Source of the DNA: Trichodelitschia bisporula
Taxonomy: Eukaryota
Reading direction: 5' to 3'
DNA length: 64,000 nt
Assembly (NCBI GenBank): GCA_010356995.1
Contig: ML996691.1
Span: forward strand, 998,174 to 1,062,173
Part shown: positions 5,536 through 57,015 of the stretch, one piece after another
Layout of the letters: each line of letters begins with the position of its first letter
Position numbering within the stretch: the first letter of the stretch is position 1
Program-made: the position numbers and the translations under genes
The notes under the pieces: generated by a model
Database searches by the model: none
What the model was told of the DNA's origin: nothing
What the model saw: the letters and a program-made list of their open reading frames with translations, nothing else

Positions 5536-5694
5536 AACTTGGATTTAGCTGGGTATATAGTTGCAGTGGTAAAATACCAAGTGAGGATATCATAAACTGA
5601 CTACTATGAGGGGAAGGCCCAAGGAAGTCGTAGGGTAATGGAAGTGTAGGCATGAAACGTGCAACAGCTACGGTGTGAAGTGAAAGCTTGATAA

Positions 5695-5780
5695 AAGACG
5701 AAGAGAAGAAGAAGAAGAAGAAGAAGAGACGGAGAAGAAGAAGAAGAGACAGAGAAGAAGAAGAAGAGAGAGAAGAGACG
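5695..5780. repeat. Interrupted (GAA)n / purine-rich microsatellite
   Basis: About 85 nt of almost only A and G on the + strand, mostly GAA units interrupted by GAGAC. Confidence 0.9.
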
Positions 5781-6560
5781 CTCGAGACTGAGTACACGAC
5801 GTGGCAAATGTCTTCCCATGTTCTTTCCTTCCATCATGAGCAAATTTGCCATGCTCCTTCCTTCCATCGTGTGCGCATTACATCATGTGCACCTTCCATT
5901 GGCATGCCCCTACCCAATACTGATATGCTCTCTCCAACAGTAAGTATGATGCCTTGGTGCCATACATGCCTCAATGCTCCCCTTCCGCCTCAGGTGTCCA
6001 TACCACAGGGCGTGAGGTTATCGAATGGGGATTGCAAGTCCAAAAGAGCTTTAGATCCAACGCTCGTCAACTCATAGCGAAAGTCGTGGTCAGCAAACCG
6101 TTGCTCGCAGTCAGATTGTTGACAATATTGACAGATTAGTGTCTACGAGAAGCCAGCCGTGGCCTGTACACCGTGGGTCCATTCAACAACCGCCCCGTCA
6201 TCCGTGGGTATCTGAGGGATAAACCGCATGCGTAGTATAAAACACCTCCCTCCCGCACCACCAGATCACAAAGGAGAAAATCCCGAAGCAAATACGGCTC
6301 TGCCCACCCCGAACGCCCCTCACTTTGATGCCCATCCCACCCTTGTTAGATAGACCCATTTCGCAGAACAAGTACAAGGGCTGCCCCCACCATGCAGAGG
6401 CTATGAAAACATGAAAGCAGAAAAGCAAGTGCATCACAACGCCGCGCAGTAAGAGAACACCGCCGTCATATGCAATGGTGCATGAAACCCGCCGACCCCG
6501 ACACCTCCCGATAAGAAATCCAACAACATGAGAGTCAACCTCTTACACACATCCAAGCCG

Positions 6561-25415: not shown

Positions 25416-26379
25416 GCGCCCTTCAGTGCGCTTCACTTGACTCGTCACGCCCCTCGGCATAGTTCGCTTCTGGAAGTGGGTATGACAGGGGCAGGGGCGA
25501 TGGCACTCTCGTTTTGATTTGTATATTCTGTTTTTGGGCGCTGTGGCATCTTTATTCGGCAGCAGGTGGAGTCGGGCATCGTGGGATACTTCCGGCACAC
25601 TTGGGCATTGGCGTGTTACAGGCAAGCAAGCGGCGGCAGCACATATTTAGGATACCTCTTTTCCTTCATCGATACCATGGCTTTCTCGTCTTTCCTAACA
25701 GCATCCCTTTCAACCAGTGTACTTCTCAGCTTCCGTTCAACATACCTCCCATCCTTCTCGGTCTCATCATTTTAACTTGGAATCATTGTACCTCGTATCT
25801 TGTTTGATTACCGTCTCTATCCGTCGTCGTCGAGGCTGGAAGCTCCATTGCTTTCGTGGGGGTAGAATGAGCTGGGGATGCTCGGGTCCGTTCTGGGGTT
25901 GACAGGAGTAGTTGATGCAATGATACATGACACGGGATGCGTGCGATGCGTCGTCATCCTCTTTCAGTGGAAGCATTGCAAGCCACCGGTGTTATGGACC
26001 ATCAAGTCAACGGCCCTGGTAAACCCCAGATCGGACCCGAGCCTCCCCAGCTCCCATCGTAGGAATAGAATGAGATCGGGAGTCGGATTGCAAAAGCACA
26101 AGGAGCGTCGACGGTCTCGTGACGGTTTCTCTCCATCTCTCTAGCATATCCCGATTAGGGCCATGATCATTCATCTTGTCACCCATTCCACCGTCAGTAC
26201 CGCCCCAGTTACACCAGATCACCAACCCAAATCGCAGATCCCCCAGCAATCACTCCAACACCACAGAACCTTCCAAAAACCCGAAGGATCAAACCCGATC
26301 CCAACCCCTTGCAACTACCCAAAAAGAAAGTCCATCCCAGATGCCCATTCCCCACATGCATATCCCGCCGTACCAAAAA

Positions 26380-26473
26380 TGATTCAGCCCGGATTCGAAC
26401 CGGGGACCACCTGTGAACACTCGCAAAGGAGCGCATGTTAGACAGGTGTGATAACCGACTACACCACTGAACC
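26380..26473 (-). tRNA. tRNA-Val(AAC) with 20-nt intron
   Basis: Minus strand reads GGTTCAG TGGTGTAGTCGGTTATCAC A CCTGT CT AAC A [intron tgcgctcctttgcgagtgtt] C ACAGG TGGTC CCCGG TTCGAAT CCGGG CTGAATC A. All stems pair, and TTTTT (Pol III terminator) follows directly. Confidence 0.95.
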
Positions 26474-27192
26474 GCTTAATGAAACCCCTTCTTCCCCCTG
26501 GGTTCGTGAGTGGAGACCGGGAGAAAGGACGGGAGGCTGGAAAGTGGCGACGCGCGGACTAAGATCGGACGAGGTCGTTATCTTAGGAAACAGCCTTGAG
26601 TACAGACCGGACTTGCTGTAACGTCCATGCTTGCCTTTTGATCCTCTTCTTTGGGTGGATCGAGGGTGGCGTACGCTGAGAAATCTGGTGAAGGCGATCG
26701 ATGTTGCGGTTTCATGATCACAATCAGAAACGGCGCTTCTTTCAATTCGAATAGCGCATTAGGCATGGCCCATTCGAGCGTATTCAAGATGTAGCCCAGT
26801 CCGTCTGGTGCAGCTACGGATATTTCTAGAGCGCCGGAAGAATCGTCAAGGATCAAAAAACGATCCGCCCAGGCCACATTCTATGTCTTGTTCAAAAGGC
26901 CATGCCGTCTCAGCATACAGTGAGACGGAAATGAAGGCTAGTTCTTCAACAAACATCTCATTATCTCAGACACCGTCGCCAGCTTGATAGAGGACGTTGA
27001 AATCTTAGTGCACAGACAAAGTCATCCATTTCGGGCAAGGAGTCAGTTCGTAGCATTTTGCATTTTTGGAATTCTCATATCCCCGTTGTTCGCCTCATGC
27101 AAGTTGCAGTGCCGTAAGAAACCAGGCTCCGTCCGAGTGAAAGGCAAAAAAGGAAGACAGGACCCATCAGAATCTCCCACACAACCACACGC

Positions 27193-44982: not shown

Positions 44983-47900
44983 ATGGACCCCAACGTCTCC
45001 AAGGCGTTGACCGACAAGCTGTACGACAAGAGGAAGAGTGGCGCCCTTGAGTATTTACGAGTCCTTACCTGTAGCCACTCCATCTAATCGCGTATAGACT
45101 CGAAAATCTGATCCGTGACGCCCTTGCCGCTGGAGATCACGACCGCATTTATAAGATAGTGCAACAGCTCTGTCATGATTACGCCTATGTGACCACCCAA
45201 GCACATGCTAGGAACGGCGGGCTGATAGGGCTGGCTGCCGCGGCCATTGCGCTGGGACCAGAGGTGGCCCGATACCTTGAAGACATCGTTGGCCCCGTTC
45301 TGGCCTGCTTCGCCGACCAAGACGCTCGCGTTCGCTACTATGCTTGCGAAAGCATGTACAACATCGCCAAAGTGGCGAAGGGTGAAACTTTGCTCTATTT
45401 CAACCAAGTGTTTGACGCACTTTGCAAGGTTATGCTTCCCGAAAACTGCTTTTTCATATCTGACCAAGCACAGCTCGCGGCAGATTCCGAGATGTCCGTA
45501 AAGAACGGTGCGGAGCTGTTAGACCGATTGATAAAAGACATTGTCTCGGAGTCAGCGGCCACTTACGTTTCCGTTCTTCATGATCGTTTCGGTGCTGAAG
45601 CGAACGACGAGACGGCTGTCCACGAAGAGCCGCCGACGGCATTTTCCCTTCAACGCTTCATTCCTTTGCTGAAAGAGAGAATAACGGTGATGAATCCATT
45701 CACGCGTGTCTTCCTCGTCTCTTGGATCACCTTATTAGACTCGATACCTGACCTGGAACTGGTTGCGTATCTTCCGGAATTTCTCGGTGGTCTCTTCAGG
45801 TTTTTGAGCGATTCCAACCCGGATGTCCATTCTGCCACCCAAGTTGCGCTTGAGAAATTCCTTGCCGAAATCAAGAAGATCGCACGGCTCAAGCGTGGTA
45901 TTGCAGAGAGCAAGCGGAGTCAGGCTGATGATGTCATGAAACGGTCCGATTCCGCTACCAGGAGTCGAAGCCCCGGGAGTATGGTTAGTGCCGACAGCGA
46001 CACAGATGACAATCCTCAAGATGAGGCAGCCTTTTCAGAGAACGATGATGAGGGAAGCGACAGAAGTAGCGTTGATGACGGAACTTCCGGCGAAGAGGAT
46101 TGGATACCAGGTCAAGATGTTCAGATTGACTACACCAAAATTCTGGAGATATTGGTGACGTTTTTAGGGGGCTCGTCGGGTGAGAACATCAAGCATTCGG
46201 CACTCCACAAACTGACGAAGGCAGAGGAAGAAATACAGCTGACCGCGCTCCGATGGATCGATTCCTTCTTTGATATTGCCCCCGAAGAGATGCTTGCCTT
46301 TATTCCGAGGCTTCTGTCGCACGTGCTTCCCGCCTTGTCAAACGATGTTGAGCAAGTCCGTCAGGCTGCAAACAAAGTGAACGGATCGCTCATGAACTAC
46401 ATCCTCTCGCTCCCCGACGAGGAGCCTAAAGTGGAGCGTCCTGAGCCGCCTCCAACCCAGCCTGCCGCACCTACCGGTGGGGTCACCATGGAGCGGAGAG
46501 AGTCTGCCATGTCGTCCAAAATGTCGAGATCTGCCGGGAGGCCCTCGGACGTTGACTCCAGAGCCGCAGAGAAACCAGTGCAAACCGATATGCCCCCCCC
46601 ACCCCCCGCCGAAGAGCAAAGCGCGCTGCCGCGGCAATCATGGAATCTTGACTATGGAGCTACAGTTAATGCTCTGACGCTCCAGTTTCTCAATGACCAC
46701 GAAGCGACGCGTGTCGCTGCACTGACCTGGTTGATCGAGCTTCACCGGAAAGCCCCTCCTGGACGTAAGCTCGAAATCAATGAAGCGACATTTCCCGCAC
46801 TGCTGAAGACGCTGTCGGATAGCTCGGATCTCGTCGTAAGGCGGGATCTGACCCTTCTTTCACAAATGTGCAAAAATACCGATGATGTCAAGTTCACGGC
46901 TTTCATGATTGACCTCCTCAAACTCTTCGGGACGGATCGTCGGCTGCTGGAGACGCGAGGCAATCTTATCATTCGGCACTTATCACTGGGTCTCAGCGCT
47001 GAGCGAATATACCGCACGCTCGCCGACTGCCTTGAAAAGGACGAGGATATCGAGTTCGCCAGTATCATGGTTCAGAATCTCAACAACAATCTGATCACGG
47101 CGCCGGAGCTTGCTGATGTTAGGAAGCGGCTGAGAAATCTGGAGACTCGAGACGGGCAAACATTCTTCGTGACCCTCTTCCGGTCATGGTGCCACAACGC
47201 CGTCTCGACATTCAGCCTCTGCCTCCTGGCACAGGCTTACGAACAGGCCTATAATCTGCTGCAGATCTTGTGAGTTGCTAGATTCTCTATATATAGCTGC
47301 TGATAGTAGCAGTGCCGACCTTGAGATGACTGTCAACATGCTCATCCAAGTCGACAAGCTTGTACAACTTCTAGAGTCTCCCGTGTTTACCTGTAAGCCT
47401 TCTCGCCAACTATGTTGGCCATATAATAACGCGACAGATCTTCGCCTCCAACTTCTAGAGCCGGATCGGTATCCACACCTGTACAAGTGTTTATACGGGC
47501 TCTTGATGCTCCTGCCCCAATCCTCAGCCTTTGCCGCGCTAAAGAATCGCCTCAACAGCGTCAGCGCAATCGGCTACCTCCACATTCCACTTAGAGCGCA
47601 TGTCCCCCCTCACGCCACCTCTTGTATCTCCTCACTGACCACCCAAAGCAGCAACCCAACCACCCCTAGCGCTAGCACCGCCAACTTCGAGCGTCCGGAC
47701 CGGCCAAACAGGCTAAAAGCCCGTGAAGAAGGGGGCATCCGTTGGACCGAGCTGTTGGAGAAATTCCGCGCGGTACAAGAACGTGCCCGGCGCGTTGCCC
47801 GCGGGTCCACGCTCCCAGAATTCGCTTTCGATGGCACGCCCGAGGATATCCAGGCTGCGCCACCGCCGCCCGTTACCGACAAGGAGCGTCGCGCTATCGG

Positions 47901-48096
47901 GCTCGCACCCGGTGTGGTGGAGGCACGTGCTATGGCCACGGGTATTCCGGTCGTTGGTGGGGTGGGCCGACCGAATACGCCGGCACAGCGTGCGTCGGTG
48001 GCTACACAAGGGAGTGTGGTGGGAGCGAAAGGGAAGCCGGGACTTGGGCTTGGGCGGTTTGCCGGGGGCGTAGGGGGAAGGAAGACGAAGCGGTGA
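44983..48096 (+). CDS. VAC14: PI(3,5)P2 regulator scaffold Vac14, 6 introns
   Basis: [76 protein letters not shown] and [18 protein letters not shown]. Confidence 0.96.
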
Positions 48097-48976
48097 TAGG
48101 ATGCTTGTGGGTTAGGACCTGGCAACGTGGGCTGGTGTGCGGCGCAATGTGTGGCTATGCGCTTTGGGCCCCGATGGGCTTTCTTCGAGGAGCAGTAATG
48201 GCCTTTGTTGGGTCTGTGCTTATTCTTGAGTGCTTTGTCAGTATACCCTCAGCTTGGCGTAGAGGATGCTAATATGACAATGATTCGTGTACTCCTTGAG
48301 TGTTGCCTTGGCTGTCGGATAGTGGCTATTGGTTGTTCGACTTACGAACTCGGGACTTGGCTGTCGTGATAGTAGTTCTAGAACCAGCTATTGGTTGCTC
48401 GACCAACGAACTGGGGAGATGCTGGATAATCTAGTCTCCATTGACTCGCCCACAGAAATACCGGTAAACTTCCTTGATATCTTCTCGCCCCAAACCCACA
48501 CCTCGAAACCATAAACAACTCTGCTCCATTATATGAGTCCCAGCTCCTCAAAAGGCTATGGTTCACTGAGACTTTTCCGACCTTCCAAAGCGGCCTTCCA
48601 CGGAGAACAATAGCCTTGTCCACATAAAGAAAGGGGGAAACAACACCGGCATTGTAAATGCTCACTCTCCACTCGACAAAGCTTACAGCAGACTCATTAC
48701 TCTCGTTCACAACCCGAATTCTCATTCACAACCAGAACCGCACGCTCACAATCCGAACAGCATCAAACCTATGTAAGGGCCAGCCTTGCCCTAGAGCCGA
48801 TGGTTCTTCAGGCGAGCAGTCGCCTCGCCTGTACTACACTCCCGCCTCCCCACCAGAGGTCGTGGCAATGTAGCCACGGCCGGAGGTGCTGGAGGCGGTG
48901 ACGACCGGAGTGAGTATACATCCGTATATGCCTCTGCAACGGCCTCTGCAACGATTTCGCACTCCGGGACCTACCT

Positions 48977-49422
48977 GGCGACCAGAGTCCCGGCCACAAA
49001 ATTCGCCATCTCGACCAGATTGCCTGCCGTCGGCCGCCTGAAAAACATCCTGCTGGACAGCAGATACTACGATGTGGGATCTGTGGTCCGGACGATCAAA
49101 GTCCCGGCCATCAATATCAAACATATCGAACCGATTGCCTGCCGTCGGCCGCATGAAAAGCACCATGCAGGACGGCAGATACTACGATGAGGAATGTGCC
49201 GCGCGCCTTCAGATGGAGGACATCGGCCGACCTGGCTCCGTGCCTCATCCACACGCAGGCATGAGGGGGGGGGCACATGCGAAGCACGCAGCGCGGCCTC
49301 AGCCGATGCCATGGCTAAGTTGCAGACGCCGATTCAGGATCATATCCTTCGCACGCATGCCGGTCCCCATACAGAATGGCAGATACTACGATGATGCGGC
49401 GAGCCGCCAGATGGAGGACCTT
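48977..49422 (+). repeat. Degenerate direct repeats (two ~100-nt copies plus a third partial copy), probably a decayed repeat-protein ORF
   Basis: gattgcctgccgtcggccgc..tgaaaa..ca..c.tgc.ggac.gcagatactacgatg occurs at about 49018 and 49133. gcagatactacgatga...cagatggaggac recurs at about 49175 and 49379. Confidence 0.8.
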
Positions 49423-49718
49423 AGCCTTTGCAAGCGTCGGACGGAGATCACACATGCGTCTTCTCGGCCTGGTTGCTCTCAATCCTATACAAAATGACTT
49501 TTGAACCTTTGTCCTTCAGACTATGTGAATCGTTCAGATCAGACAGGATATGGCCTCCGGATTTGGACAGAATCCTCGAAGAGCTGGACAGAGACATGTG
49601 GCACAGTCCTCCTCCAGTTACCGCATCGGGGGACATTCCGCACCCTATTTCCCGATTGTGGCCCTGCCCTGCACAATTTCCTCCAATATTGCCTCAGGAT
49701 ATTCTGCACACCTCACCG

Positions 49719-49959
49719 AACGCCGAATTACTCTACTCAGCACGCATGATTTTCAGCCTGGACATATGTACTCCATCGTTCCAGTTTCCAAAGGAGACGA
49801 AGGAACCAGCACCTTTCTTTAGTTATAGAGGAAGCGAAACTCCAGTCAATAATAACTAAAGAAAGGTGCTGGTTCCTTCGTCTCCTTTGGAAACTGGAAC
49901 GATAGAGTACATATGTCCAGGCTGAAGATCATCCGTGCTGAGTAGAGTAATTCAGCGTT
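49719..49959. repeat. Long inverted repeat: 108-bp arms, 4 mismatches, 25-nt spacer
   Basis: 49719-49826 is the reverse complement of 49852-49959 at 104 of 108 positions, with no indels. Confidence 0.97.
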
Positions 49960-50599
49960 TAGAGGGACAGGGTCACAATCAGGAAACAAGGTGAGTCAAA
50001 TACTCGGCATGGGTTATGTACATACATCGAGGCATATGGACAAGTACTATAAGGGGCCGCATTGGACTTAAAATAAAAGTTATACGTACATCGAGAATCC
50101 AGTTCTTTGGTATTCAACTTCTTCTGTGATGGGAGCATGGCTTGAGACGTGCAATGGTATGGTGTGAAGTTAAAAATGGTAAAAAGAATGAATGTGAGAG
50201 AGTTAGAGACGCTCAAGACTAATTATACTGTTGACGCTAAGTATCCTCCTATGCCCCTTCCTGTATCAATGCTTCTGCCTTGTCTACCTCATCCCCTGCA
50301 CAGTTCCCCCAGCCTGATGTCTTAAACAGACCGTAAACCCTTGTGAGAGGTGATTGGCAACGTAAACAAGTTTCCCATTTGCAGGCATATACGTATACGG
50401 ATCAGAAATCCGCATCGTGCATTTCATCGTCGAACATGGTAGAGGATCTTCGTACTGCTTACACTCGGAGGTGTTCTCGGCATGGGCATTGAGGAGCGCG
50501 CGAGCGCAGTCGTAAGCTTCCTTTGCGGGTACCACGGCCTCAGTAAGGGTAATTATGAGTCCTCTAATCATCGGAGTTAGTTTCTTGGTCAAATCTGCA

Positions 50600-51821
50600 C
50601 GGTTTGGTCCCACAACCTCCTCCCGCTTAGTATCTCGCCCATGCCTTTTTCTTAGCCTTCCGCTCCGGCTGGATACGCCTCGACTAGGGTCGCGGCCCCA
50701 GAGTGAGCGTGTTGTCGGGAGCAGCAATGACGTCTACCGAGTCCGGTTCTTCTCTGCAGACATCTTCTATAATTTCGGAGGCAGCCCTCTTGAGTCCACG
50801 GATATGGTCACACCCGAGTTGCTTCCAAAATGCGAAAGTGAAATTGTGCTGATCGTGTCCGTGATCACTGGCGTACAATGGGGCAATCTGTTTGGCGGTT
50901 CGACAATCCATAGCCTGTTGTTTGAAGGGATAAGGTGGTTTCGGATACCCCCTTTCTACTCAACTTGCCAAAGATACTGCTTTGTACCCTTCCCCCGAGA
51001 TGACGCCGTGAATGAGAATTTCATCAGGAAAAAGAGACTTGTCAGTCTAACCCTGTTTAGTGTGTTGACGGGGAAAATGCTGTTAGAGATAATCCTGGTG
51101 TCAACTATTGACATGTAGCAAGACTCTAAGTGACCCGCAAAATTCATCACGAAGTGAAGTTTCGGAGTCCAAGAGCTGAATTCCGTCACAGCATCCTTGT
51201 TGTGTAGCAGAGATGGTCAACGATCATGTGTCTGAAGTTAGGAATGTCCAAGGGCGATAAATGACCTCCTCCCCATAGGAAGGCGAGGGGACGGATTTCG
51301 GTCGGCGTATTCAATCCAGCATAGCCACCGCCTGAGTAGGCGTGCCAGACTCTGATGAGGTATCTCGGTATATCTGCACCAGAGTCTGATCAAGCATTAG
51401 CTGACGATCCCCTAAACAGAATCGTCGGATTGCCACTCATTTCTTGCGCTTCCATCATCCGAACCAAGTAGGGGTCCTCATGGAAAGCCATCATAGTGGA
51501 GTTGACGGAAAACGACAACTCCGATAATGATGTCTGTAGCCTGGACTTGAAATACTGAACGAAACTTGGTGATCTTAGAAATCCGAATGATGAAGCGGTG
51601 AGAGGAGTGAGAAGACTGCGGATGGATACATTTTCTCGCAGTTGCTTCATGCTTTTTAAAGGCCACCACCAAGGCTTCATCCAGGTCTGATCAGTGGGAA
51701 ACATGTTCTGGAATCTACGAAGCCATGCGGTCTCCGGTGTGTGTATTGCCAGAACATGTTCGACTCTTTCTTCGGAGACTCTGGTCATATCGTGAATCTC
51801 ACCTGTGCACTGAGGTCGCAA
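50600..51821 (-). pseudogene. Pseudogene of a fungal ADP-ribosyltransferase-fold-like protein
   Basis: Reconstructed PRYLIRVWHAYSGGGYAGLNTPTEIRPLAFL..HL [frameshift] TEFSSWTPKLHFVMNFA..YMSIVDT [frameshift] PDEILIHGVISGEGYKAVSLAS*. At least two frameshifts and in-frame stops. Boundaries are approximate. Confidence 0.65.
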
Positions 51822-52598
51822 TAGGGGTCACACTTGAGAGCTCTGGGAAAGTGGATCGTGAATTCGGAATCTGATACTGACTGTCAGTGGAGAATCTGGG
51901 GATCATGTTTGGTACAACAAAACACAGAGACATGGCGATATGACAAAGAAGACAGCTTGAGGAAAGGAACTGTTTTCAACTTCATGATTTGCTTCGGAGA
52001 CGATTGCCTTTGTGAGGACGTTGGACGTCCATGTATACTCTAGTAGGCCGAGTAATCATGAACTGGCCGCATGCTGATAAGAATAGGACACAGGGACGTG
52101 GCAGTCTACCGTAAACAAGGAACAGGGAGAGAAGAAATGGAATGCCGTTGACTTGATGAGTTGCTTCAAAGGTGATTGTCTATGGGGACGTCGGACGTCT
52201 TCTCCTTTGATATTCCAGCAGGCTGAGTAATCATGAAGTGGTCGCGGAGAAAGGGCTGCAGGGGACAGCAAGCGATCCGTGTGCTTTAACACTGCCTCTT
52301 CCTAGGGGGAGCGGAAGACGTGGGGGGGGGAGGGGTGGAGCGGAGCGGAAAGGAGAGTCGGTGGCATTCGCGCGTATCAAGCGAGTGGGGCGACACTTTG
52401 CCTGTACGAATGGCCACCAATGCATTTGTGCAATTCGATCCAATAGGCCAGACCACCGACACCTCCAGCACGGCATAACGGCATATTCACGCGCTTGCGC
52501 GAGGCCACTTTCTGTGTGTGTATGTGCCGGGAAGCGCGGAGTACGCCGTACAATATCCGTATACTGATCGTATTCGACTTTCGACGCGCCAGATGTAA

Positions 52599-54776: not shown

Positions 54777-57015
54777 CTATTGCACCTGCTCCGCATACCT
54801 CTCAAAAAACTCCAGCGTCATAGCCGCCAGAAAACATGGCACCTGCCCCTTCGTGTCCACCCAAAACTCAATCAATCCCCTAATCTCGCGCGCAAACTCG
54901 CTCTGCGGTCCACCAGAAACCTTCATTGTGCCCGCCTCACCATCGAAAATGATGTAATTATCATCCGCCTCGGCGTCGTCCGATGCAGACGGGTAGTACA
55001 TGCTCGTAGCCTTGACGCGCCCGTTAGGCATGAAATCGAGTTTCCACCCGATGAGACTGAAAACCACGTCGCGGAACTCGCCTGCCTTCGCAGCGAATAT
55101 ATCCGTCAGCCGCTTGATTTTCTTATCCCGGCTCGCGATCGTGGTGTCCCGCTCGGCGAGTTTCAGTTCCATGGCTTCCAGGCTGGCCAGCGGGACAAGC
55201 GGGTGGCCCACCCCGCCACCGTCACCTGTGAGTAGTGCCTTGAGCGACGCATTCTCCGCGCTAAGCGCCGTAAGCGTGCTCTGCTTGATCGCCGCAGCAG
55301 CGTTGGTCGGATTGTCACGCAGCTCGAGGACACGCGTGCGGGACGCGGCTTTCAGCGCCGACAACTGGCTGGACTTAGCCTTGAGCTCGCGCTCCAAGAC
55401 GGATATCCGGGTCGTCTGCTCCGCGAGCTTATCCTGCAGATGGCGGGATTTGCGAAGGAGCTCGCCGAGGCGTTCGTCGGCGCCCTCGTCGTTCTCGAGT
55501 GGACGCTTGGAGCCAGTTTGCGGTCCTGATGGCTTGGAGTCTGGGATCTCGATCTTGGTGAGCTCGTCGTGGAGTTTCGCAGCGTCTTTGCGCGACTCGT
55601 CGAGTAGGTCCTCTAGGCTCTTGATGTGGGCGGCGCATTGCGCGGTGTATTGCTCAGGGTGAAATTCGGCGACTTCGCCGTCAAAGGCCTTCAGTTGCGC
55701 GCGCAGGAGCTCGACCTCCTTCATAGCGAGGTCACGCGCTCGCTCAAGGCGGGCGCGGACGCGTGCATCAGCTGGGTTATCGGGCGGCTGCGCTTGTGGC
55801 GCTTGCTTCGTGAGGTCGGCGCGGAGCTGGGCGTTGAGTTCTTCGAGATGGCGGATGGCGGCGTCTTTAACGGTAAGTTCAGGCTTGATGGCGCCGAGTT
55901 GGTCAAGGAGGGAGATGCGCTCGACACGCTCCTGCATAAAGGCGCGGGCCATATCTTCAGGAGATTCGAAGCTGAATTCGCCTTCCGAGGGTTGTTGGCT
56001 CTCAAGGTAGGACTCCCAGGCACGCTTTTCGTCCTCGAGGACTTGGACGCGGTTTTGGGCTTCGGCGAGTTCCTGGCGTAAGTTGTCCATCAAGCGGAGT
56101 TTGCCTTGCAGGTCGCGCTTTTGCTCTTCCACCAGTTTGATGTTCATGCGGGTGTTGCGCAGCTCCTTGAGCTCTACTGACTGGGTCCGCTCCGAGTGTT
56201 CCAGCTTCTTGATGTAGGCAACCTGCTCCGAGAGCCGCTGCTTGATCACATCGTAACCATCAGCTTCGCCGGCGCGTGATTTGAGGCCCAGAACCTGCGC
56301 CTCGAGTTGGTGCACCTCCTCTTCCTGCTTCGTAAGCCGATGCTGAGCGGCCTGCAGAGCAGCCGCCCTGCTCTCGACTTCGCCGCGCAGCTGATCGATC
56401 ATCTGTTGCTGTGTGCCCTGCTTCGACTCGGCCTCCTGTGCCTGACGCTTGATCTCATTCTCCATCTGCCCAACCTGCTCCTGAATCTCCCCCATTTCCT
56501 CTTCCAGCGCCGAATATTTGTTCGAGACGTTCCGAAACTTGTGCTCGAGCTCGGCCTTCTCATTGACAGACCGTGTTTGCAGCTCGTTGAACTCGTGCTG
56601 CAGTGCCTGATTCCTGCGCGTTAGAGTCTTGACCGAAGTCTCGAGTTGCTATCCGCCATCAGCACATGCCCACTACAACAACACCAAACCCACCTGCGAT
56701 CTCCGGTACTCGTCGCTGAAGCGTTCCTCCGCGAGCCGCGCCTCGTCCACATGCTGCGCAACCGCAACCTCCTTGTCCCGCTTCAGCGTCGAGATTTCAT
56801 ATTCGAGAGAGTGGATGCGCGCGCGCAGGTCCTCAGTGCTCATCTCTGGCCGCGGGTTAGCTGTGCCCGTCCTACGGTGCAACCAACCAACCTATATCCA
56901 GGGGCCCGACCGAGCGCATCGCAATCGGCTGGTGTCGTGTCGAAGCCATGGGCGGGGGTGTGGGTGATGCGGCGCCCGCGAGGAAGTCGTACGTGGGCAG
57001 GTTGCGCGCGGCCAT
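54777..57015 (-). CDS. MAD1: Spindle assembly checkpoint protein Mad1, 2 introns
   Basis: Long coiled coil. Mad2-interaction region RVLELRDNP, and C-terminal EFRDVVFSLIGWKLDFMPNGRVKATSMY..VPCFLAAMTLEFFE. N-terminus MAARNLPTYDFLAG. Confidence 0.93.

Follow-up and report, generated by a model that had tools for sequence, protein, structure and literature searches.

A Single-Copy Fold-Back Hairpin at the End of a Gene-Fragment Patchwork in Trichodelitschia bisporula

Genes and Repeats Around the Locus

The window is a 64,000-nucleotide stretch of the Trichodelitschia bisporula genome, and coordinates given without a contig refer to it. VAC14, the upstream neighbor of the hairpin described here, occupies 45075-48467 on the + strand, the gene itself lying at 45075-48096, and a MAD1-type gene lies at 54777-56648; the gene content is fungal, and introns are 43-54 nt long. 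Two probable RNA runs, which come from one sample and were available as contigs, show spliced VAC14. A GC..AG intron of this gene (47598-47651, 54 nt) is spliced in both runs. The spliced contigs stop at 48447-48467, which leaves 1.25 kb to the stem, so that no VAC14 readthrough into the locus is visible.

The 4.5-kb stretch from VAC14 to the next gene has 17 matches elsewhere in the genome, five of them left of the stem and 12 belonging to a dispersed repeat at 50127-50291, compared with one dispersed match for a 16-kb control stretch (one of two control candidates was scored). This repeat is a decayed solo LTR on the + strand; it begins 168 bp beyond the hairpin and is a neighbor, not a part of it. 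The TG...CA ends, the 5-bp target-site duplications (TSDs) of other copies and the high copy number identify an old solo-LTR family. Both ends are present in 11 of the 13 copies examined, the TSD matches at 5/5 positions in three copies, 4/5 in two, 3/5 in one and 2/5 in five (the window copy being among these last), and 80 sampled 10-kb stretches held 16 matches at E 1e-3. A link between this family and hairpins was considered and set aside, as a copy lay within 0.5 kb at one of seven sampled hairpin loci and within 3 kb at one, which is insufficient. A second copy in the window (5632-5945) is broken by an expanded purine-rich simple repeat, and another (L009, G000:C6:77.2 kb) lies in a very deep contig of the probable RNA run X3. 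The right half of the intergenic stretch (50339-52160), which is unmatched, contains several pieces from the RNA runs at low depth, and a local duplication of 95 bp is found at 51979-52070/52151-52245.

A Patchwork of Gene Fragments

Between VAC14 and the hairpin lies a non-coding patchwork of about 1 kb, made up of same-strand fragments of unlinked genes, with the hairpin at its 3' end. All of its pieces are on the + strand. The first (48748-48993) is 74% like a locus on G000:C19 (L005), with a small hairpin in both copies. It is followed by a piece present in three local copies (49007-49463), which resembles coding-sense DNA on G000:C12 (L006) at 67-82% and also has a decayed copy on C21 (L007), and by a piece (49277-49356) derived from a frame of 478 codons on G000:C8 (L014), in whose core 38 of 40 positions are identical, 25 nt of them exact. 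A further piece (49512-49623) derives in frame from an orphan frame of 650 codons on G000:C4 (L008), with 73-88% identity, and the last (49641-49698) is common to a hairpin-rich intergenic stretch on G000:C6 (L059), with 44 of 58 positions identical. The C12, C8 and C4 pieces represent the coding sense of long frames. Exact words of 17-25 nt are shared with four unlinked loci and one decayed copy, and the best 21-nt windows between the patchwork and its donor loci agree at 19-21 of 21 positions. Two of the donors appear in RNA contigs, namely C12 and, in both runs, C8. None of 10 donor-region frames gave a Pfam match over the cut-off, eight intergenic frames (among 13 proteins searched) had no Pfam family, and the C4 orphan frame found no usable match in the ESM Atlas. 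Our literature search on templated gene-fragment mosaics in fungi returned none, which is no proof of absence.

The GC-rich hairpin of the first piece (48841-48897, and L005:1593-1651) has been kept in both copies, the inner stems of which differ and yet pair fully; either compensatory change or independent correction by template switching could account for this pattern.

The first-pass annotation, made from this DNA alone, had interpreted the sequence leading into the hairpin as a dying gene. What stands is that the C4-like part is an in-frame relative of a long orphan frame, which gives the pseudogene reading a small kernel of truth. The open reading frame as a whole is of chance length and runs across the patchwork, and is not one gene. 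Its first ATG is at 49494, not 49428, giving a 121-aa frame (49494-49859, + strand; 144 aa stop to stop from 49425) which ends, as had been described, just inside the right arm, with a TAA at 49857-49859, 8 nt in. An ATG frame this long arose in 74 of 500 shuffles of the region. The frame has no Pfam family and no homologue at E 0.01 (two candidates, in a search covering lengths 66-212 only), and exact protein look-ups found 0 of 1 and 0 of 4.

The Hairpin and Its Support in DNA Reads

The inner stem consists of a left arm (49719-49826), a 25-nt loop (49827-49851) and a right arm (49852-49959). The arms pair at 104 of 108 positions with no indels, exactly as first described, and the innermost 52 bp are perfect; the perfect runs measure 52, 22 and 20 bp. 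The mismatch types also agree with the earlier account: 49724/49954 and 49774/49904 are C-A on the + strand and G-U on the minus strand, 49751/49927 is U-G on the + strand, and 49745/49933 is C-C. The predicted fold energies are -193 kcal/mol (+ strand) and -201 kcal/mol (- strand), with a z-score of -26.8 and no equally stable sequence among 100 shuffles. If transcribed, the locus would form the stable fold-back expected of a milRNA or hairpin-RNA locus. Repeat-induced point mutation (RIP) was rejected as the cause of the mismatches, the contexts being mixed and the RIP indices not RIP-like. An Rfam search gave two matches, both below threshold and reflecting shape only; the identity with MIR1319 was rejected on the same ground (68.8 bits against a cut-off of 116.6).

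The hairpin is real, with both arm versions in reads at full depth. Contigs of DNA run X1 end at 49804 on the left flank (depth 432) and start at 49874 on the right flank (depth 475), the perfect 52 bp form a contig of their own at depth 900, and an 85-nt contig covers the loop (49797-49881) at depth 454. A second run of the same sample, X2, breaks at the same two places. The contigs thus break as a true repeat would, and the presence of both arm alleles at full depth argues against an artefact.

A Longer, Polarized Duplication

The 108-bp hairpin is the inner part of a longer duplication. Further out, 49641-49666 pairs with 49968-49993 at 22 of 26 positions, a score equaled in 3 of 2000 shuffles, and 49993 is the outer end of the duplicated tract. 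Between the distal and inner stems, a 52-nt stretch on the left (49667-49718) faces 8 nt on the right, so the right copy is short by a net 44 nt. The distal stem, like the patchwork and the solo LTR, was absent from the first-pass annotation.

The homologue on C6, 76% like 49641-49698, gives the duplication its polarity. It includes 49672-49698, a segment missing from the right copy; the right copy is therefore the derived one, and the left copy the original. A codon-position test of the C6-shared piece detected no coding constraint. A minus-strand GT..AG intron at 49668-49715 (48 nt, in the stem bulge) was considered as the source of the gap and, judging by eye, rejected: the right copy mismatches the precisely spliced junction, the branch site is poor, and a deletion at short microhomology fits better.

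Identity falls outward from the loop, from 52/52 through 52/56 to 22/26. The difference between inner and distal identity is marginal (Fisher p = 0.046), and the placement of all four inner mismatches outside the first 52 bp has p = 0.07. Selection on an RNA stem would produce such a gradient as well. Across the seven transition mismatches of the hairpin, which carry little power, five are G-U-compatible on the minus strand and two on the plus strand (p = 0.45).

Copy Number and Possible Targets

The genome-wide search for MITE-like copies that had been suggested for the arms found them to be single-copy: the arm, alone or with its right flank, returned only itself in a DNA search at E 10. Two translated frames across the arm matched only their own locus, a search of 0.89 Mb of sampled loci with an HMM of the arms was negative, and the arm shared no 13-nt word with a 0.86-Mb genome sample. 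The DNA search misses diverged matches: it passed over the C6 match at 76% and repeat copies whose exact words are no longer than 14 nt, and for the arm it can miss matches that are short or under 80%. A close paralog of the arm is therefore unlikely on these searches, while a diverged donor elsewhere in the genome or a lone 21-nt target site is possible.

Fold-Backs Across the Genome

To place the hairpin against its genomic background we sampled 80 stretches of 10 kb on 21 contigs. Nine fold-backs were found in seven of the 80 stretches and none in shuffled copies; they have 39-150 paired bases, loops of 8-111 nt and arms from about 75% to 100% paired. By extrapolation the genome would contain about 290 fold-backs of all ages (95% range 130-550), roughly 10 per megabase, of which about 30 (1-180) would be as long and as young as the one in the window. 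The arms were unmatched elsewhere at E 0.01 at six of the seven other fold-back loci searched, the exception (L084) lying in repeated DNA. Over 10 hairpins there was no strand preference for G-U (p = 0.68; p = 0.27 with L106, which was not found at random). Any single hairpin offers little power, but taken together the fold-backs resemble DNA-level events of every age and not selected RNA stems.

Several members of this class are worth recording. At L084:3854-4222 (G000:C13) a perfect 150-bp inverted repeat with a 69-nt loop, one of the nine sampled fold-backs, lies beside a 110-bp multi-copy repeat, and the window itself has an older single-copy fold-back at 25869-26053 (65 paired, 17-nt loop), near a multi-copy 100-bp repeat at about 26375-26490. 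Within 850 bp, L059:5590-6525 (G000:C6:305.6-306.5 kb) holds three decayed hairpins that are unrelated to one another; they are flanked by a piece resembling the C4 orphan frame, which one of the hairpins abuts, and by the piece shared with the window. It is a second locus at which patchwork and hairpins occur together. L106:1699-1954 (G000:C21) is a single-copy hairpin of 91 pairs in which all six of six transition mismatches are G-U on the + strand (p = 0.03, uncorrected), and it is a better candidate for a hairpin RNA than the hairpin in the window. Its flank is common to L047 and L108, and L047 has a different hairpin beside the same flank as well as a solo LTR.

Origin of the Hairpin

We consider it probable that the hairpin arose as an inverted duplication by template switching, was later homogenized and has no function. 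A local inverted duplication, which the first-pass annotation had proposed together with template switching, is upheld by the data, and template switching is the mechanism that fits best: a local single-copy tract has been reverse-duplicated, and one of the two copies runs on into older DNA beside it. The hairpin would be the scar left when DNA synthesis or break repair switched template locally, an event expected to start from short inverted microhomology already present at the switch points in the ancestral allele. Just past 49851 the nascent 3' end would have turned back on its own strand and used it as template leftwards over at least 186 nt, from 49826 to 49641; about 44 nt would have been skipped during copying or deleted later, and the copied strand would have rejoined the downstream sequence at about 49994. 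Later template switches from arm to arm may then have kept the loop-proximal part near-perfect while the distal part decayed. Homogenization of arms by template switching is described in S. cerevisiae for short repeats with arms of 7-16 bp (PMC8604942). Fold-back loops in Mre11/Sae2-proficient yeast cells are reported to be at least 15 nt long, with a median of 36 (PMC7467729), and the 25-nt loop seen here fits this large-loop class. The event would have taken place at the 3' end of the 1-kb patchwork, in DNA under little constraint, and we infer that the resulting hairpin has no regulatory job.

The same origin is compatible with some small-RNA production. A weak + strand transcript of the patchwork that runs through both arms may be diced as a by-product and act only on its own locus, which we regard as unlikely. 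The genome has two genes with a Dicer_dimer domain, three RdRP loci and three loci with a Piwi domain, in one of which the match is interrupted by stops that may reflect introns. With Dicer, Argonaute and RdRP genes present siRNA production is possible, and any RNA that contained both arms would probably be cut by Dicer. TA-rich motifs at 50015-50090, which we take to resemble 3' ends, would suit such a transcript, as would a low-depth piece (4.3) from the probable RNA run X3 at 48799-49330. This piece is strandless, comes from a single sample at about 1% of VAC14 depth and may be DNA. Beyond it the RNA-run contigs leave 49331-50338 uncovered; given that this is one sample in which neighboring pieces have depths of 2-6, and that hairpins drop out of libraries, we give this gap no weight in either direction. 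The perfect runs of the stem are long enough for dicing, and there is a precedent in Aspergillus fumigatus, where inverted-repeat transgenes are described as giving rise to 20-nt 5'U RNAs via DclB (PMC12871901). Against this reading, the same report describes the contribution that the RNAi machinery makes to endogenous small RNAs as limited (PMC12871901).

It is quite improbable that the hairpin is a young functional hairpin-RNA or milRNA gene which silences in trans, directly or through RdRP spreading into the upstream patchwork. Young hpRNAs of Drosophila are reported to originate from fragments of their targets (PMC10317233); here the patchwork shares its exact words with unlinked loci, two of its donors are represented in RNA contigs, and RdRPs are present. 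However, the earlier proposal that the hairpin could silence its paralogs in trans found no support, since the arms match no other locus by DNA or protein search and the paralogous, donor-like pieces sit upstream of the stem, outside the duplex. In searches that can miss diverged or short matches, neither arm was complementary to the transcript of another locus. The few mismatches show no significant strand bias, and the Rfam match to MIR1319 is one of shape. In fungi, the support tiers for milRNAs are set out as calling for Dicer-dependent small-RNA reads, more than 80% of them from the hairpin strand, plus conservation (PMC9757828). A more elaborate version, in which dicing of the stem and upstream RdRP spread would yield secondary siRNAs against at least three unrelated genes, and so build a multi-target small-RNA gene from repair debris, is likewise a long shot. 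It would do so in a genome where patchworks and fold-backs both arise often, as at the L059 locus on C6, which likewise joins gene pieces and three hairpins.

Very unlikely, too, is a transposon origin, in which the hairpin would be left over from a MITE or fold-back element and its stem would consist of the terminal inverted repeats. Its size (241-353 bp) is MITE-like, but it is single-copy where multiple copies are expected, and the absence of a TSD asserted in the first-pass annotation was borne out: none of 2-10 bp was seen at three candidate boundaries, at inner or outer ends. Moreover, identity is highest near the loop and lowest at the ends, and the left arm runs without a break into neighboring patchwork DNA, of which a homologue exists that is not a hairpin. 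The transposon reading is largely refuted.

An artefact of assembly or library, such as a fold-back chimera, is extremely unlikely: runs X1 and X2 may be the source reads of the assembly itself and the loop contig, with only 30 letters per arm, is below the bridging rule and leaves loop orientation unphased, but each flank contig bears its own arm alleles at full depth, and the four differences between the arms together with a decayed distal stem are unexpected in a chimera.

Relation to Known Systems and Implications

The hairpin belongs to a known class, the local inverted duplication. It resembles the quasi-palindromes whose correction has been studied in S. cerevisiae in its close arms, short spacer, loop-proximal similarity, single locus and lack of a TSD; its 108-bp arms and 26-bp distal stem contrast with the 7-16 bp studied there (PMC8604942). 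With the large-loop fold-back inversions of the same yeast it would share the hairpin-primed inverted duplication, as proposed here, and a loop in the same class, whereas the yeast events, as described, are gross rearrangements resolved by a second event and the one in the window is a tract of about 190 bp between ordinary genes (PMC7467729). It would fold like the de novo hpRNAs of Drosophila simulans and, as they are, is a young long inverted repeat beside or within gene fragments; those have arms complementary to identified targets and yield siRNAs, whereas the window arms match nothing found (PMC10317233). In common with fungal milRNA loci it is intergenic, outside a transposon and not in a structural Rfam family, in a genome with Dicer and Argonaute, but on the scale given for such loci it could rank no higher than an unsupported, tier 3-like candidate (PMC9757828).

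The patchwork has parallels of its own. In Pack-MULEs, Helitrons and templated-insertion mosaics, as in the patchwork, a single intergenic tract combines short fragments of several unlinked genes, all in the same orientation. The patchwork differs in that neither terminal repeats nor a TSD were found for it, nor a second copy of the tract.

Overall, the hairpin provides a dated example of local inverted duplication, one that is polarized and has an identity gradient. The T. bisporula genome is a good place to measure how much raw hairpin-RNA material template switching puts out, and at what rates it is transcribed and diced. Natural long-hairpin siRNA loci in fungi are, by one account, poorly documented (PMC9757828), and if spreading from such a stem into a patchwork were shown, it would offer these organisms a natural path to endogenous RNAi with several targets.
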